Shown in pieces: positions 5,455-43,223 of a DNA stretch of 64,000 nt. Source of the stretch: an uncultured bacterium (lineage in GTDB: Bacteria > Patescibacteriota > JACMRA01); the NCBI GenBank assembly GCA_963704645.1, contig OY969926.1, positions 352,001 to 416,000 of the forward strand, read 5' to 3'. The notes beneath the pieces were generated by a model, which was given only the letters and a program-made list of their open reading frames with translations, made no database searches and was not told where the DNA came from. Within the stretch, counting starts at the first letter, position 1. Every line of letters starts with the position of its first letter. Made by a program: the position numbers and the translations under genes.

Positions 5455-5529
5455 GCGCAGTTAGCTCAGTGGTAGAGCATTTCCTTGACGTGGAAAGGGT
5501 CGGGGGTTCGAACCCCTCACTGCGCACCA
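5455..5529 (+). tRNA. tRNA-Val(GAC)
   Basis: Acceptor GCGCAGT/ACTGCGC, anticodon arm TTTCC-TTGACGT-GGAAA, GTTCGAA T-loop, encoded CCA. Confidence 0.95.
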
Positions 5530-5623
5530 GTTTAAAGCACTCAAAACTAGACAAAGTAAATAAATTTACTCTAATTTAAAACATAGCTTTGTAGTTAGAT
5601 ATAAAAAAGTTTTTTACATTTAT

Positions 5624-5700
5624 GGCGGTTGTAGCTCAGTTGGTAGAGCGCTGGGTTGTGGTTCCAGTGGCCGCGGGTTCGAATCCCGTCGATCGCCCCA
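5624..5700 (+). tRNA. tRNA-His(GTG)
   Basis: G-1 with C discriminator, anticodon arm CTGGG-TTGTGGT-TCCAG, GTTCGAAT T-loop, CCA. Confidence 0.95.
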
Positions 5701-5731
5701 TGACTTTAAACAAATATAACAAATAACATCT

Positions 5732-5805
5732 GGGCCTTTAGTTTAGCGGTAAAACATATCCTTTGCAAGGATAGGTGGAGGGTTCAATTCCCTCAAGGTC
5801 CACCA
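5732..5805 (+). tRNA. tRNA-Ala(TGC)
   Basis: Acceptor GGGCCTT/AAGGTCC with G3:U70 alanine determinant; anticodon arm TATCC-TTTGCAA-GGATA; CCA. Confidence 0.95.
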
Positions 5806-6382: not shown

Positions 6383-6507
6383 AAAAAAATAGCTACATTA
6401 ATACCTAGCTATAAGTTAAATTTTAAGCAAACATTAAATCAAATGATACTTTTTTGAGTATACCTATGTTATAATCTAATTAGTTTTAAAATTAAGGATT
6501 TTTTTTA

Positions 6508-6990
6508 ATGCCAAATATTTCAGAAGAAAGCCAGCAACCAAGCTTGCAGATTACACCAATTAATCCAGAGCTTTGAGAAAAAGAGGAGTAAGTTATTTTG
6601 CTTGGTTTGTTCAGGCTTTTACTTGAAATAGATAGCAAAAAGAATTCTGAAAATAATAAACTACATTTTTCTATGTCTAAAAACGACCTTTCAATTATTA
6701 TTACTATTTTTACAAAAATTCTAGGACTTTTATTCGTCTTTGGTGGCTTTATTTTACAAATTGTTGAGGTTATGAGGTAGGTATTTGTATGTCAGGATTT
6801 ATTTTAGAATTTTACAGTCAACTTAACAACAGGGAATTAGCGTTGATTTTTTGGTCTTTAGCTTTTTATTTTCTTTGTTGTTGATTTTGATGTTTTATCC
6901 AGTTCTATATTTTTTAGAATTATTTAAAACTTACCGATGGCATTTTGTGAGTTGGTAACAATTTAATTAAAAACAATTTTTATTTTTATT
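6508..6990 (+). pseudogene. Degraded small or membrane-protein coding remnants
   Basis: ATG at 6508 with in-frame stops before LLGLFRLLLEIDSKKN; a second fragment MSGFILEFYSQLNNRELALIFWSLAFY is also broken by stops. Confidence 0.3.
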
Positions 6991-7098
6991 AATTCCAAAC
7001 ACCCAAAATCATATTATTTACCTAAAATAACTGGAGCTGTATTATTCCGTTAGAGTGGGTTAAATGACAAAACGCCCTAATGTATTTATAATGGCAGA

Positions 7099-15887: not shown

Positions 15888-17315
15888 ATGCCAGATGCTA
15901 TAAATTCTAAAGATAATAATAAATCTGTTAATTCTTCTAATAATTCAAGACCAAACTCATTTGATTTCCCTAACAATAAAAAGCCAAAAGAAGGTAAAAA
16001 TTTCTTCCAAAAAGTTGGCGATTTCTTTAGATTAATTGGAATTTTAATCATTTTAATTTTATTAGCAGTTAGTTCTTTGTTTGCATTTTTGGTAATTAAT
16101 CCTGATCATGAATTTAGTAAATGGATAGTAAATAACACTCCAATTAACCGTATTTTGGGTTTAAATACAAATAAATCAGACGACAAGAAAACTGAACCTG
16201 CTGCAATTAATAATTTGCTTGGGTTAAATAATGACAATCAAAAATACGCTTTCGCCCCTGAAACTTCTACTAAAAGCACAACTGCAGTTGTTAATGAAGT
16301 TCTACCTTCGGTAGTTTCAATTTTGGTAAAGTCTAAGAGTACAGCAAGTAATGGTTCTGTTTTTGCTGGAACTGGTTACATTGTAGATAACACCGGACTA
16401 GTTGTAACGAACAAACACGTTATTGCTTCAACTTGTGGCTTGTCTAATGCTTCGGCAACAATTATGGCGGTAACTTATGACCAAAAAGCTGTACCGCTAA
16501 CTTTGCAAAGCGTTGATCCAATAAACGATATCGCTATTTTAAAAATGAGTAATGCGCCAACTAATTTAACTCCGGTTAAGTTTGCAGACAGTAACCAATT
16601 ACAACTTGGAGCTGAAGTTATAGCTATTGGAAACGCACTGGGTGAATTAGACAACACTGTTACTAAAGGTATTATTTCTGGTTTAAATAGAAACTTAGAT
16701 TACCCAGATTTAGACACTTGTACAGGCAAAAAAGTTAATACAAATGGTTTAATTCAAACTGATGCAGCTATAAATAAAGGCAATTCTGGCGGTCCACTTT
16801 TCGATTCTTTTGGAAGGCTTGTAGCGATGAATACTTTTGGTGCTACAGAAGGTGAAAACATAGGGTTAGCAATTCCTTCTAACTTAATTAAATCTGGTTT
16901 AGAAAGTTTTTCTAAGAACAACAAAATTTCTAGGGCCAGACTTGGTGTAACTAGCCAAAGCATTGACCCATTTACTAAGCAAGCCTACGAACTACCTTTA
17001 GATTACGGAGAGATTATTTTAGCAAGTAGTAATATAGTGCCAGCTATAGCAAGTGGTTCAGCTGCAGAAAAAGCTGGATTAAAAGAGGGTGATATTATTT
17101 TAGAAATAAATGGAGAAAAACTAGTTTCTAGTAATTCAAACCCAGCACCACTTCGCAGAGCTTTAAGTTCTTTAGAACCGAACACAAAAATTACTTTAAC
17201 TGTTTTGAAAGTTAAAACAAGGAACGCCAATATATTTAGCTATCAGGAAAATTCTGAAAAAATAGAAATAACTTTAGGCGAAGTTAGTGTAGATTTAGCT
17301 AATCCGCAGAAGTAG
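15888..17315 (+). CDS. htrA: Membrane-anchored HtrA/DegP serine protease with PDZ domain
   Basis: TM anchor; TNKHV, DIAILK, QTDAAINKGNSGGPL triad; PDZ AEKAGLKEGDIIL. Confidence 0.93.
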   Translation: MPDAINSKDNNKSVNSSNNSRPNSFDFPNNKKPKEGKNFFQKVGDFFRLIGILIILILLAVSSLFAFLVINPDHEFSKWIVNNTPINRILGLNTNKSDDKKTEPAAINNLLGLNNDNQKYAFAPETSTKSTTAVVNEVLPSVVSILVKSKSTASNGSVFAGTGYIVDNTGLVVTNKHVIASTCGLSNASATIMAVTYDQKAVPLTLQSVDPINDIAILKMSNAPTNLTPVKFADSNQLQLGAEVIAIGNALGELDNTVTKGIISGLNRNLDYPDLDTCTGKKVNTNGLIQTDAAINKGNSGGPLFDSFGRLVAMNTFGATEGENIGLAIPSNLIKSGLESFSKNNKISRARLGVTSQSIDPFTKQAYELPLDYGEIILASSNIVPAIASGSAAEKAGLKEGDIILEINGEKLVSSNSNPAPLRRALSSLEPNTKITLTVLKVKTRNANIFSYQENSEKIEITLGEVSVDLANPQK

Positions 17316-17349
17316 TAAAACAAAATATCCCCCTTTAGGGAGGATTATC

Positions 17350-17379
17350 TTGAAAATAGCCAATTGTATATGATACAAT
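17350..17379 (+). promoter_or_regulatory. Sigma70-type promoter in front of an ORF-free structured region
   Basis: TTGAAA (17350-55), 18-nt spacer, extended -10 TGA-TACAAT (17371-79); lies just after the htrA terminator-like hairpin (17327-17345). Confidence 0.6.
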
Positions 17380-17385
17380 GGCAGG

Positions 17386-17968
17386 GTGGTAAATTTTGCT
17401 TTACTATGCTAGCTAGATATTTCTAGCAAATTCAAATTCAGTTCATCTTTAGACTAACTGACAAGTCTTGTCCAAGTTTACAACTAACACAATAAAGATT
17501 ATGTGAAAGTTTTAGGTTAATCCTAGAGCACAAGGTGAAAAAGTGCTTTTAGTAAACTTGCTCGAGAGGTCCAGTAACTCGTTAGTTACGGCAATTGCTT
17601 TATAATTAGAATGAGTAAATCGATACTAATTGCAAAGCAAACTTTTTCTAGTTTTAAATCTAAAAAATAATTACTTTGTTTAGCAAAGTAACAACCCCGA
17701 TGGTTATTGGCCATGTAGACCGATTATTGGTATGCTCCAACCAGCTTGATTCGTGTGTTGTGTAAGCCCGTGCTACACTATCAATACAACCTATAGAATC
17801 ATCTAAGTTGTATTCAATTAATAGCATCAAATTTGCTCTTCGTCAAATTACTATTTCCAATGTTTTGTGTTGAAGTGGTGCATCCCTTCCCAACAAGTAT
17901 AACATCAAACTGCTTTATCAAATATATACTTTTGGGCTGGCAAGTTTTGTCATGGTATATTTACCATG
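17386..17968 (+). ncRNA. Candidate large structured non-coding RNA (~470-580 nt), family unknown
   Basis: No ORF of 60 aa or more on either strand; more than 10 nested stems found by eye, including a perfect 9-bp CAAGTTTAC/GTAAACTTG and a 15-bp stem at 17595-17640; upstream promoter. Confidence 0.5.
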
Positions 17969-17982
17969 TTGAATTAAATAGC

Positions 17983-18819
17983 TTAAAGACCCACACTTTC
18001 GTTTCTTTTTAATCCTAGTTTTAGTATTAACTTAGACAAAAAGTACAACACCAAGCACCAAAATATTCCTCCTAAAAATACGTAGATTGTTTCAAGCCAG
18101 GTATATTTTCCAAGGTAAACTTGCATTGGGTGATAAACTATAAAAGACCAAGGTAAAATCTGTAAAGAAGTTCTTAGCCAGTCTAAGGTAATTAAATTAT
18201 AAGGGAAAATTACACCCAAAATTAAGGGTACCATGTTTTCATATAAATTGGCTTGTCCGTAAATTGTAACCGTCCAAAAAGATGTTAGGCCAAGTATAAA
18301 AGCTATAAAATATCTAATTAAAATTGCCACACCAACAAGTAAAATCAATAAAAATATATTTAGTGGGTTAAAATTTAAAACTAATTTATCTGGAATTAAA
18401 AAGAAAAGCGGGAAAAGAATAATTGTATAATAAATAAAAATTCTTAAGGTAAAACCTGTTGTTATGAAAAAATTGTATGTAAGTAGTGAAATTGGTAAAA
18501 TTAAACTTTTAGCAATACTTCCATGCTCAATACTACCGCCCAAAGACCAGTAAATTGTGTTGGTTGTAATAACAAAAAGAATTACTCCTAAAATTAAGTT
18601 GGTAATAATTTCAGATGAACTATTGGTATAATTCCAAATTAAAACAGCCGAATAAATACTAACTGTTTGGCCTAGAAAATGTAGCAAATTGTTTACGAAA
18701 TATTTCCCATCCACTTTATAAAAATATTTCACAACATACCACCACTTGTAATTTTTACCCAAAAGTTTTTCCAGAAAGGTAGTCGTTGTATTCATATTTA
18801 ATTCTATTTTTAACTTCAT
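17983..18819 (-). CDS. ABC-2 type transporter permease (DUF990-like)
   Basis: 6 TM; IEHGSIAKSLILPIS, GLTSFW, ILPWSFIVYHPMQVYLGK; true start may be ATG 18795. Confidence 0.8.
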   Translation of the reverse strand: MKLKIELNMNTTTTFLEKLLGKNYKWWYVVKYFYKVDGKYFVNNLLHFLGQTVSIYSAVLIWNYTNSSSEIITNLILGVILFVITTNTIYWSLGGSIEHGSIAKSLILPISLLTYNFFITTGFTLRIFIYYTIILFPLFFLIPDKLVLNFNPLNIFLLILLVGVAILIRYFIAFILGLTSFWTVTIYGQANLYENMVPLILGVIFPYNLITLDWLRTSLQILPWSFIVYHPMQVYLGKYTWLETIYVFLGGIFWCLVLYFLSKLILKLGLKRNESVGL

Positions 18820-22281: not shown

Positions 22282-22412
22282 TTGAGAAAAGTAAAATTGC
22301 TTTTTATTATTTGGTCAGACAAGTTATTGTGCAATGTTTTTTCTAAAATAAATTCTTTAAATTATGCAATTTCTATCTAACACAGCGTGTAGGGTTAGTG
22401 CTCAGTAATTAT

Positions 22413-23469
22413 GAGTTAATAACCAAAAACTATCACTTAAAAACTCCACTTCTGTTGATTAAATAGATATATTATGGCATAATAACTTAAACACTCCAAG
22501 TTTTTGTATGTCTAGACACTGTATTTTCTGTTATTCAATTGAAGTTATTAAGAAAGGAAAACAGTCTGGAAGACAGAAATATTTCTGTAGAAATTGTAAC
22601 AAATACTTTCAATCCAAACCTCAAAAATCTCGTAAGGTTGATTCTATTGTTAATGCCTTAACTTTTAAAAAAATTACTCAGATTTAGATCTAAATAATAA
22701 GACTGTTCGTAAAATTGTAGATGAATATGAAGTTAAATTTACTCAGGTAGAGCCAAGTATAATTAACCTAGTCTGTGACTGTACCTTCTTTAGAAAAAGA
22801 AAAGATAAAGATGGTTTAATAATATTCTTTGATTCAATTACAGGAAAAGTATTATGGCATAAGTTTATACAATCTGAAACTAAGTCTAATTATTTAGAAG
22901 GATTAAACTACATACTCCAGAAGGGTTTTAAAATACAATCTGTAACCTTAGATGGAAGAAAAGGTATTCCAGAGGTATTTAGAGATTATCCAGTCCAAAT
23001 ATGTCAGTTTCATATACAAAAGAGAATAAGCACTTTAATTACAAAGAATCCTAGAACAATAGCTGGAAAAGAACTTAACCAAATAAATAACTTATTCATT
23101 AAAAACAAATTAACAGAACAGAGATTAGGTAAAACTCTGGCTTTATACACAAAAAGAAACCAAGACTTTCTAAGCCAAAGAAATGAACAAGGACAATACC
23201 TACATAGTAGAATAATTACAGCTTTAAAAACATTCAAAAGAAATATGAATAGATTGTTTGCTTTTCAAGAATAGCCAACTCTTAATATCCCTAATACAAC
23301 CAATCATATTGATGGAGGAATAAATACTAAATTAAAAGATTTAAATAGAAGGCATAGAGGAATGAGACAAGATAGAAGGAATAAACTTCTCACCAATTTA
23401 TTGTATAATTTGAAGGGCGAAAAGGTTAGAAATATATAATTTCAGGTGATAGTTTTTGGTTATTAACTC
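22413..23469 (+). mobile_element. IS256-family (IS1249-like, Zn-ribbon) insertion sequence, copy 1, 1057 bp
   Basis: Perfect 24-bp TIR GAGTTAATAACCAAAAACTATCAC; 8-bp TSD GTAATTAT at 22405-12 and 23470-77; second copy at 41406-42462. Confidence 0.92.
22508..23439 (+). pseudogene. Transposase interrupted by a frameshift (A7 run 22667-73) and an in-frame TAG (23272-74)
   Basis: MSRHCIFC..KKG..GRQKYFCRNC Zn ribbon; -1 frame continues with DCTFF, DGRKG, QICQFH, then TAG, then PNTTNHIDGG and HRGM. Confidence 0.85.
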
Positions 23470-23660
23470 GTAATTATAATTGCAAATGAATAGAGGTAAT
23501 TATACCTTAACAACAAGTATCAACTGAAAATGTCTATTTGATGAATTAGTTTGGTAGTTTAATTGTTAAGAAGGAAGACTCACCTGAATACACAACAAAC
23601 ACGTTGACATTTTGTGCATTTAACTATAGTTGTAAGTAATTCAAATTTTCAATCTATTTT

Positions 23661-41281: not shown

Positions 41282-43223
41282 ATTAATTAGAATTAAACTT
41301 ACAGCCTTTGTTTTTGTATTTTTAAGTTTAGTGCTGCTTTTAAGCGGTTTTAATGTCTACGACACAAGTAGACAGGGTTTAGAAAATTTCAGAAATCAAA
41401 TAAATGAGTTAATAACCAAAAACTATCACCTGAAATTATATATTTCTAACCTTTTCGCCCTTCAAATTATACAATAAATTGGTGAGAAGTTTATTCCTTC
41501 TATCTTGTCTCATTCCTCTATGCCTTCTATTTAAATCTTTTAATTTAGTATTTATTCCTCCATCAATATGATTGGTTGTATTAGGGATATTAAGAGTTGG
41601 CTATTCTTGAAAAGCAAACAATCTATTCATATTTCTTTTGAATGTTTTTAAAGCTGTAATTATTCTACTATGTAGGTATTGTCCTTGTTCATTTCTTTGG
41701 CTTAGAAAGTCTTGGTTTCTTTTTGTGTATAAAGCCAGAGTTTTACCTAATCTCTGTTCTGTTAATTTGTTTTTAATGAATAAGTTATTTATTTGGTTAA
41801 GTTCTTTTCCAGCTATTGTTCTAGGATTCTTTGTAATTAAAGTGCTTATTCTCTTTTGTATATGAAACTGACATATTTGGACTGGATAATCTCTAAATAC
41901 CTCTGGAATACCTTTTCTTCCATCTAAGGTTACAGATTGTATTTTAAAACCCTTCTGGAGTATGTAGTTTAATCCTTCTAAATAATTAGACTTAGTTTCA
42001 GATTGTATAAACTTATGCCATAATACTTTTCCTGTAATTGAATCAAAGAATATTATTAAACCATCTTTATCTTTTCTTTTTCTAAAGAAGGTACAGTCAC
42101 AGACTAGGTTAATTATACTTGGCTCTACCTGAGTAAATTTAACTTCATATTCATCTACAATTTTACGAACAGTCTTATTATTTAGATCTAAATCTGAGTA
42201 ATTTTTTTAAAAGTTAAGGCATTAACAATAGAATCAACCTTACGAGATTTTTGAGGTTTGGATTGAAAGTATTTGTTACAATTTCTACAGAAATATTTCT
42301 GTCTTCCAGACTGTTTTCCTTTCTTAATAACTTCAATTGAATAACAGAAAATACAGTGTCTAGACATACAAAAACTTGGAGTGTTTAAGTTATTATGCCA
42401 TAATATATCTATTTAATCAACAGAAGTGGAGTTTTTAAGTGATAGTTTTTGGTTATTAACTCAAATAAATAAACAAGTTGAAAGAGATAGGTTAATGCCA
42501 AGAATTGCCAATCAAATTGATGTGGTGGAAGAAGCCAGATTAAATGCATTGGGTAGAATTCAGTTTTTAATTGTTATAAATAATGCTAGTCTGGTTGTAT
42601 TTCTAACTTTAATTACTTGGGAAAGCTTGTTCTTTTTATTGCGTCCACTGGCTAAAGCTACACAGGCTAGAGAAGATTTTTTAATACAAGCAACTCATGA
42701 ATTACGTACACCTTTGGCTATTTTGTATTCGGAATTAAGTTTGTCTGAAAATGAAAATAATATTGATGAATTAAAGAAAACACATAAAGATGCCCTGCAA
42801 GAAATTCAACGTTTGCAGCAGCTTAGCAACACTTTGCTAGGAAGAAAAGAAGAAAAATTGCAAACCGTTAAAGTTGAAAAAGTTATACAGCAGGCCTGGA
42901 GTAATTTATCTAAATTCAACGTAAATAACTTAACTCTAAATTTTAATTTTAAAGGAAAAACCATAATTAAATCTGACACGGTTAAATTCTATCAACTAAT
43001 ATTTAATATTTTAGAAAATGCTGTGAAACACGGAAAAGCAAATTCCAAGTTAAATATACAGTTGGAACAAAACCAAATTATATTTTCCAATCAGTCTGAA
43101 TTTAATATTTTTGTTGAAGGAGTTGGAGCTTCGGTAAGCAAAAGTTTGGCTGAAGATTTAGGAATGGATATTAACTTTGAAATGAACAATTACGTCTACA
43201 AAGCCAAGCTAAACTTAGCCTAA
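41220..43223 (+). pseudogene. Sensor histidine kinase interrupted by IS copy 2
   Basis: TM1 fragment ends ..FRNQIN; downstream part KQVERD..THELRTPL..NILENAVKHG; removing the IS plus one TSD restores the frame. Confidence 0.88.
41406..42462 (-). mobile_element. IS256-family (IS1249-like) insertion sequence, copy 2, 1057 bp, inverted relative to copy 1
   Basis: Same 24-bp TIRs; 8-bp TSD AAATAAAT at 41398-405 and 42463-70; same frameshift and TAG (41601-03). Confidence 0.92.

Follow-up and report, generated by a model that had tools for sequence, protein, structure and literature searches.

A candidate structured non-coding RNA gene, apparently restricted to one genus, on the minus strand between htrA and an ABC permease gene of an uncultured Patescibacteriota bacterium

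What occupies the long gap between htrA and an ABC-2 family permease gene in an uncultured member of the Patescibacteriota (lineage JACMRA01) and, if it is an RNA gene, on which strand, between which ends and in which family should it be placed? The gap (17316-17982, 667 nt) lies in the window analysed here, a stretch of 64,000 nt corresponding to positions 352001-416000 of the single contig (C1) of the source genome, designated G000 (1.27 Mb, 33% GC). It is bordered by htrA (15888-17315, plus strand), which encodes Trypsin_2 and PDZ domains, and by the permease gene (17983-18819, minus strand), which converges with htrA onto the gap. An initial annotation had described about 670 bp devoid of open reading frames (ORFs) of 60 amino acids or more, and this was borne out, the largest ORFs being 59, 56 and 42 amino acids long. 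It had further proposed a multi-domain RNA at 17350-17968, read from the plus strand, in the size class of OLE, ROOL or GOLLD and perhaps representing a new family.

The evidence gathered here makes it rather likely that the minus strand of the gap encodes a structured non-coding RNA (ncRNA) in a gene of its own. The candidate is probably a new, genus-restricted structured ncRNA, encoded opposite to the strand first proposed and not belonging to OLE, ROOL or GOLLD. A structured RNA within the gap and without a known family was thus retained from the initial proposal, but its strand, limits and size class were not: the conserved unit spans 17317-17722, the predicted transcript would run from 17811 to 17317, and the RNA would be smaller than OLE, ROOL and GOLLD. 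As judged from sequence, the locus combines a promoter motif, a terminator, no conserved ORF and a conserved structure, as would suit a stand-alone ncRNA gene.

Conservation of the unit among relatives

When the gap was compared by BLAST with 61 related genomes, the sole real match came from the second of the two species in the genus, G001 (81% identity over window positions 17330-17724). Positions 17725-17990 were unmatched in G001, and the three remaining matches were low-complexity stretches of 22-31 nt. BLAST and alignment together delimited a conserved core of the candidate ncRNA of about 405 nt (17317-17722, minus strand, about 14 predicted helices), extending from ATCGGTCTAC at 17722 to the end of a T-run at 17317. 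This block was 81-85% identical in the two species, its alignment blocks displaying 36-47 identical positions out of 50, and it included identical runs of 35, 32, 27 and 24 nt; columns of the leader preceding it displayed 13 and 20 identities out of 50. As yardsticks, RNase P RNA and tmRNA were 86% and 93% identical between G000 and G001. HtrA displayed 64% protein identity and five further neighbouring proteins 55-70%; their genes were scattered in G000, and synteny was scrambled. The block itself occupied different loci in the two genomes. In G001, htrA was located on another contig, and the block was flanked on one side by a divergent SBP_bac_5 gene and, on the other, by a pair of short repeats beyond which lies a MazF/PemK-like gene. 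No permease homologue was found in G001 with the G000 permease as query.

Small shares of the locus were also recovered from three DNA sequencing runs (X1, X2 and X3) of two studies on sediment metagenomes. Runs X2 and X3, from one study, contained contigs of a closer relative, which were compared as difference lists and displayed the gene order of G000. The htrA of this relative was 90% identical to that of G000 (25 differences in 250 positions and 29 in 305) and the permease gene 89-93%. The gap reached 96.3% over 17283-17445 and 96.5% over 17498-17988 against 89-93% for the flanking genes, which suggests that it is changing about threefold slower than the genes around it. Run X1 yielded a single contig of 314 nt, identical to 17363-17676 and uninformative on the flanks.

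Conservation at different loci might also be displayed by the remnant or cargo of a mobile element recently passed between species, in which case similarity would stem from transfer and not from selection on an RNA. Although the presence in one genus only, the different loci, the position of the G001 copy beside a MazF/PemK gene and dispersed repeats, and the repeated 76-nt element flanking the unit in G000 (see below) would all fit such an origin, it is rather unlikely. The core is single-copy in G000, no transposase, integrase or terminal repeats were seen, pattern scans of viral contigs returned no match, and neither did blastn against phages and plasmids. An identity of 81-85% is not that of a recent transfer, compensatory changes exceeded chance expectation, and the unit displays its own promoter and terminator; a change of locus is moreover common between G000 and G001, whose synteny is generally scrambled.

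A repeat of about 90 nt, consisting of a TTGACA promoter-like site followed by an ACCTCTG-GAAA-CAGAGGT hairpin, was encountered twice beside the MazF/PemK-like gene of G001 (around 1925-2215 in L002, the numbering of the G001 locus). In G000 it was found on C1 at around 512511-512599, 1115531-1115613 and 1116096-1116177, where it flanks a MazF homologue (1115621-1116016). This suggests that the repeat is tied to a MazF toxin-antitoxin locus.

Strand, ends and folding energy

Three lines of evidence favour the minus strand for the predicted RNA, namely the polarity of a terminator, a promoter motif present in two species and a lower folding energy in both. A terminator scan identified an intrinsic terminator on the minus strand only (17317-17345), composed of a hairpin at 17345-17327 (AUCCUCCC-UAAA-GGGGGAU) followed by AUUUUGUUUU; transcription would end there, the U-run reaching 17317. 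Hairpin and U-run were both kept in G001 at another locus and, since htrA lies elsewhere in that genome, the hairpin appears to belong to the RNA unit and not to htrA. The initial annotation had read it as an htrA hairpin, but its T-run is on the minus strand, it travels with the block, and the htrA of G001 is followed by a tRNA gene and by no hairpin.

At the other end, sequence reading predicted a sigma-70-type promoter at 17818-17846 on the minus strand, with a -35 hexamer TTGACG (17846-17841), a 17-nt spacer and TGC plus TATTAA (17823-17818). G001 displayed the equivalent motif TTGACA-17-TGC-TATATT at the matching place (L002 1356-1384), and both hexamers were unchanged in the X2 relative. 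Transcription would start near 17811 in G000 and near L002 1391 in G001, giving predicted RNAs of about 495 nt (17811 to 17317) and about 500 nt, respectively. In G000, the 3' 405 nt (17722 to 17317) form the conserved core, with about 14 predicted helices including a four-way junction domain. The sequence 'TTTGACAA' was also found upstream of the RNase P RNA and tmRNA genes of G000, with which the candidate shares a similar 'TTTGAC(A/G)A' -35 region. These two genes (315718 and 286889, respectively) display a common CTGCTTTGACAA motif about 30-40 nt upstream, together with weak -10 regions; it may represent a type of promoter characteristic of stable RNA genes in this lineage.

Folding was compared with dinucleotide shuffles, and the better-than-shuffled energy that the initial annotation had anticipated was indeed found on both strands of 17375-17968 (z -4.05 on plus, -3.99 on minus). 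For 17312-17730 the values were -6.22 on minus and -4.74 on plus, and for the G001 counterpart -4.76 and -2.81, respectively. Minimum free energies (MFE) on minus versus plus were -135.3 versus -128.1 in G000 and -134.9 versus -119.1 in G001. Because AT-rich DNA yields chance hairpins, a caveat already attached to the initial annotation, 520 windows of 419 nt across G000 served as a further control, their MFE being regressed on GC content. The minus-strand core displayed a GC-adjusted residual of -3.34 standard deviations (sd), below all 520 windows; the plus strand reached -2.98, with one of the 520 windows lower, and the yardsticks RNase P RNA and tmRNA reached -1.69 and -0.78, respectively.

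Individual base pairs are also informative about the strand. A U-A to U-G change in the junction stem and a G-U to A-U change in the long stem (both described below) maintain pairing on minus only. With the substitution T17586C, found in the X2 relative, the minus strand has a G-U pair where the plus strand would have A-C; the U-G pairs of the hairpins at 17693-17721 on minus would likewise be A-C on plus.

The model proposed initially, an RNA of about 600 nt transcribed on the plus strand from a promoter at 17350-17379 to about 17968 and held together by long-range closures, is hardly probable in this light. The promoter-like motif TTGAAA-18-TACAAT with its extended TG does exist, but it reads TTGAGA ... 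TACGCT in G001, so that the -10 hexamer is TACGCT there, and it lies inside the 3' part of the conserved minus-strand unit, where it overlaps the helix GCCAUUGUAU/AUACAAUUGGC (17359-17382); it was judged not functional as earlier proposed. Plus folds beat shuffles (z -4.05, -4.74 and -2.81 for the three comparisons above), three one-sided changes give G-U on plus only, and a G-T pair in the helix 17742-17810 works on plus. On the other hand, no plus-strand terminator was found by the scan of 17000-18300, the U-run of the conserved hairpin is on the opposite strand, positions 17725-17968 are unconserved in G001, and the minus energy is lower in both species, by 7 and 16 kcal/mol. As for the closures, the letters of ATGCTA (17406) and TAGCAT (17822) are present, but the pairing reaches outside the conserved block and G001 displays CCGCTA; the closure between the 5' end and 17844-53 also leaves the block, and both fall in the non-conserved part, over the predicted minus promoter. 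The final CATGGTA/TACCATG hairpin is present too, but as part of a 76-nt element copied elsewhere in the genome.

This 76-nt element (17898-17973) is located just after the permease stop and is probably not part of the RNA. Its second copy in G000 (C1 524937-525012, numbered 1501-1576 at locus L006) is 82% identical and sits between the grpE stop and a terminator-like hairpin, so that both copies directly follow the stops of minus-strand genes (ABC-2 permease and grpE). On the minus strand the core of the element reads CCAGCCCAAAAGUAU.UAUUUGAU.AAG.AGUUUGAUGUU and contains TTTGAT twice. Between the element and the conserved core, a predicted species-specific 5' leader (17723-17811, minus strand) displays a hairpin (helix 17742-17810) replaced by a different one at the same place in G001; it is assigned to the RNA by the promoter position only. 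The non-core part of the gap folds with z -3.44 against shuffles, and the X2 relative retains it at about 96% identity.

These flanking parts bear on another reading, in which the whole gap would be a long structured 3' untranslated region of the permease mRNA ending at a convergent terminator shared with htrA. No clear terminator was found between the permease stop (17983-17985) and 17345, the slow change in the X2 relative includes 17725-17982, and what appears to be the 3' region of grpE harbours the other copy of the 76-nt element. Permease read-through into the RNA is possible in G000. As a full explanation an untranslated region would nevertheless be surprising: the G000 query retrieved no permease homologue from G001, the upstream gene there (SBP_bac_5) is divergent, a TTGACA-17-TATATT promoter precedes the RNA in that species, and G000 has a matching one.

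By its length, the gap is long but not unique in G000, where 39 of the 982 stretches without an ORF of at least 90 amino acids reach at least 600 nt. Within the window, such stretches occur at 22282-23660, 41282-42425 and 6383-7098 (1379, 1144 and 716 nt), and Rfam at gathering scores detected nothing in them. The best-folding sampled window after the candidate (-3.0 sd) belongs to a 1.4-kb stretch without an ORF of at least 90 amino acids at C1 540536-541964. It displayed no Rfam match at E up to 0.1 and was unconserved in G001 save for a repeat of about 45 nt, which has 23 matches in that genome.

Predicted structure and compensatory changes

Separate MFE folds of the G000 and G001 sequences were in agreement for most helices of the core, whose predicted architecture consists largely of successive local hairpins, with a single four-way junction among them. 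The stems listed in the initial annotation (GCTAGA/TCTAGC at 17412-27, TCAGTT/AACTGA at 17438-61, CAAGTTTAC/GTAAACTTG pairing 17473-81 with 17552-60, TTACTTTG/CAAAGTAA, GTAACT/AGTTAC and the 15-bp stem at 17595-17640) are all present in the sequence.

According to both MFE folds, and in 5' to 3' order on the minus strand, the core would open with two hairpins, GGUC-UACAU-GGCC and (AU)AACC-AUCGG-GGUU(GU) (17693-17721), both inside a 32-nt stretch identical in the two species. They are followed by a UACUUUG/CAAAGUA helix, by an AU-rich hairpin differing in sequence between the species and by a long stem of variable length (17595-17640; 15 bp in G000, 11 nt shorter in G001), which carries two compensatory pairs (helix 4). 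A CCGUAACU/AGUUAC(U)GG helix lies 3' of this stem. The four-way junction domain (17473-17560) was predicted separately in both species; closed by CAAGUUUAC/GUAAACUUG, it contains three hairpins. Its compensations include A-U to G-C and U-A to U-G in the closing stem, plus those in two inner hairpins. Next comes the invariant hairpin UCAGUU-A-GUC-UAAA-GAU-G-AACUGA (17438-17461), which forms part of 35 nt shared without change by G000 and G001, and then the hairpin GCUAGA-AAUA-UCUAGC (17412-17427), which reads GUUAG-UGUUU-CUAAC in G001. Its C-G to U-A change is a sixth compensation, outside the five of the consensus described below, as MAFFT misaligns this hairpin. The core would end with a GUAAA/UUUAC helix (17389-17404) and the helix at 17359-17382, after which comes the terminator. 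A long-range GGGU/ACCC helix proposed by RNAalifold and invariant in both species may possibly close most of the core.

The consensus structure comprises 88 pairs in 14 helices. In five of these pairs both partners had changed and in three a one-sided change had given G-U, pairing being kept in all of them; when partners were slid by one to three columns as a control, zero or one double change and 35-43% pairing were obtained. Because the consensus was derived from the same two sequences, so that its shuffle figure of 9/500 does not represent a probability, an independent test was carried out with the structure taken from one species and the observed substitutions permuted among like nucleotides (5000 permutations). 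With the G000 structure imposed on G001, five double compensations were counted where 1.25 were expected (five being reached in 30 of the 5000 permutations); broken pairs numbered 18, compared with an expected 24.3, and 143 of the 5000 permutations gave as few. Conversely, the G001 structure on G000 gave five double compensations against 1.72 expected (103 of 5000) and 12 broken pairs against 26.0 expected (none of 5000). These permutations lend real but modest support to a conserved structure. The homologues and covariation called for initially were partly obtained: G001 provided a homologue with compensatory changes, but none was found beyond the genus.

Known families, distribution and possible role

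No shared ORF was found. Six-frame translations of the G000 and G001 sequences had short pieces in common, the frame changing at indels; the 42-amino-acid ORF (17586-17714) displays a stop at codon 8 in G001, and Pfam returned no match for the 59-, 56- and 42-amino-acid ORFs of the gap. On these translations and Pfam searches, a decayed protein gene was rejected, as no residual frame is common to both species. A cis-regulatory leader or riboswitch was rejected as well: the minus-strand terminator adjoins the 3' end of the convergent htrA, and no gene follows the RNA on the same strand in either species (G001 displays repeats and an opposite-strand gene there).

Among known RNA families, Rfam 15 detected four tRNAs only when the whole window was scanned by cmscan at gathering scores, in line with the initial annotation, which had seen no signature of tmRNA, RNase P RNA or introns. 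With E up to 10, the scan of 17200-18100 returned only mir-1422, U4 and RAGATH-22, all unrelated and scoring 18 bits at most. RNase P RNA (G000:315718-316057) and tmRNA (G000:286415-286889) were both found elsewhere in G000 above curated cut-offs and neither model matched the region, which excluded these identities. The candidate resembles both in size and in G000/G001 conservation (81-85% versus 86% and 93%); unlike RNase P RNA, which gave a BLAST match in 24 of 25 family genomes, it was seen in its own genus only. IscB/TnpB omega RNA (HEARO), IS110 bridge RNA and retron msr-msd need an adjacent IscB/TnpB, IS110 recombinase and reverse transcriptase gene, respectively. Such guide or element RNAs of mobile systems were rejected, since the neighbours in both species are unrelated and there was no Rfam match.

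Membership of OLE, ROOL or GOLLD was rejected in the absence of any covariance model match at E up to 10. Like these RNAs, the candidate would be a long, strongly structured, stand-alone RNA of many helices, and its function is likewise not known. It differs from them in being shorter, with about 405 nt for the core and about 495 nt for the predicted RNA, in having been found in a single genus and in its make-up, chiefly local hairpins for which neither pseudoknots nor kissing loops have been demonstrated. A cryo-EM study (PMC12286853) describes many GOLLD RNAs as longer than 800 nt, and ROOL and GOLLD as encoded by phages or prophages near tRNA islands. In contrast, the candidate is flanked by htrA and the ABC-2 permease gene and not by a prophage or tRNA island, the nearest tRNAs being more than 11 kb away (tRNA genes of the window at 5455-5802 and 52188). 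A likeness may also exist to the orphan structured-RNA motifs of a 224-motif survey (PMC5737381), described as likewise long, ORF-free, well-folding intergenic regions with compensatory changes and a narrow range; the candidate was compared with these motifs to the extent that Rfam 15 holds them, and a match among published motifs not curated there is possible. Text searches of the literature, which cannot search by sequence, retrieved no description of the candidate RNA.

6S RNA is a rod-like hairpin of about 180 nt with a central bubble, and a GGAA-tetraloop/AGCA motif characterizes helix 8 of signal recognition particle (SRP) RNA. The models for SRP RNA (RF00169 and RF01854) and 6S RNA (RF00013) matched neither the region nor G000 as a whole, and this shared absence leaves room for a very divergent copy of either, small or large SRP RNA included, overlooked by Rfam. 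Such an identity is nonetheless very improbable. The region gave no SRP or 6S RNA match even at E up to 10, and RF00169 matched none of 31 phylum genomes (G000 and 30 relatives), although it detected 12 of the 14 control genomes. SRP RNA may be unusually divergent in this lineage; the miss is general and not specific to this genus. A universal RNA would moreover be expected in the other 24 family genomes, in which three models of the candidate found nothing real. Its predicted folds form a row of hairpins and not a single rod with a central bubble, for which reason 6S RNA membership was rejected, and no GGAA-tetraloop/AGCA motif was seen by eye.

The three covariance models, R1 for the central, R2 for the 5' and R3 for the 3' domain, together span the core; their E-values are rough owing to a short calibration. 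Among 26 family genomes, R1 detected G000, G001 and a 28-bit match in G012, rejected because it is located inside a 525-amino-acid ORF. It detected only G000 among 151 sampled phylum genomes (a sample without G001). R2 matched two of the 26 family genomes and R3 four (G000, G001, G013 and G007). In G013, the match turned out to be a 5S rRNA gene standing alone and followed by a similar terminator (L028 1660-1710), and in G007 the end of a 75-amino-acid ORF, preceded by a Shine-Dalgarno site, with another such terminator (L029 1501-1545); both were rejected. Terminators of unrelated genes in the family share the shape UCAAGA..(C)CCUAAAGG(G)..UUGUUUU, as seen by comparison with window positions 17317-17350, and this common shape accounts for these two false matches.

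A 25-mer of the invariant hairpin, allowing up to three mismatches, was present in two of 401 phylum genomes (G000 and G001). Pattern scans of genome contigs added only a G001 contig, and in metagenome contigs a first scan gave no match and a second a lone 20-mer within GC-rich coding sequence, attributed to chance. When the RNA was searched against G000 itself by short-word BLAST, an 18-mer and a 17-mer were returned, both judged to be chance; the 18-mer was rejected as a target pairing site because it has the same sense as the mRNAs there. As plain BLAST with RNase P RNA matched 24 of the 25 other family genomes, the misses are not attributable to search reach at that distance. Either the genomes outside the genus lack the RNA or its divergence was much faster there, and its gene appears to be confined to a single genus of uncultured bacteria with small genomes.

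Since no same-strand gene follows it in either species, the RNA would act in trans, as a stable multi-helix product. Its 35-, 32-, 27- and 24-nt identical runs, kept although proteins are 55-70% identical, are the reason for tentatively placing a role as a stable protein-binding scaffold or ribonucleoprotein RNA first among the possible modes of action, though at less than even odds. These runs include loops and linkers besides stems, so more than base pairing appears to be constrained; RNA-RNA tertiary or intermolecular contacts are a bolder alternative to protein binding. The neighbouring genes differ between the species and hint at no pathway. It is also conceivable, though rather unlikely, that this RNA is the first representative of a separate class of large structured RNAs, limited to one lineage of uncultured ultra-small bacteria, with a biochemical role of its own (a ribozyme or a self-assembling RNA-only complex comparable to those of OLE, ROOL and GOLLD) and not a simple regulator. 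If so, the invariant stretches of 24-35 nt would be sites of tertiary or intermolecular contact; within one such stretch, a predicted linker includes the palindrome CUCGAG.

Several points weigh against a conserved minus-strand RNA gene acting in this way. Strand, ends and promoter were all deduced from the DNA itself. The -10 hexamer of G000, TATTAA, lacks the usual final T, and the promoter scan did not call it. The plus strand folds significantly too, as its z-scores in both species indicate, and the tally of G-U changes in strand-symmetric helices is weak, five fitting minus and three plus; the G-T pair of the leader helix 17742-17810 on plus becomes A-C on minus. The consensus structure shares its origin with the sequences used to judge it, and when the G000 MFE fold was used, 18 of 31 variable pairs were broken in G001, which shows that the single-sequence MFE includes wrong helices. 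Covariation is thin because two full sequences and the partial contigs of one relative were at hand, and the label of a new family rests on the same material. As searches of the other 24 family genomes failed to reveal the RNA, it may be young or dispensable.

Bacterial structured RNAs of several hundred nt are rare, and most of those known turned out to be fundamental or unexpected (RNase P RNA, tmRNA, OLE and the ROOL and GOLLD nanocages). That the candidate has a real job is argued by its preservation in a 1.27-Mb genome with little spare DNA, where it was kept approximately like RNase P RNA while proteins are 55-70% identical. Its narrow range, one genus represented by two genomes and by contigs from another relative, restricts what comparison can prove and points to an accessory, not a universal, role. 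If transcribed, it would, with its approximately 400 nt, be tractable by cryo-EM or structure probing and represent a new RNA family among uncultured small-genome bacteria about which little has been learned.

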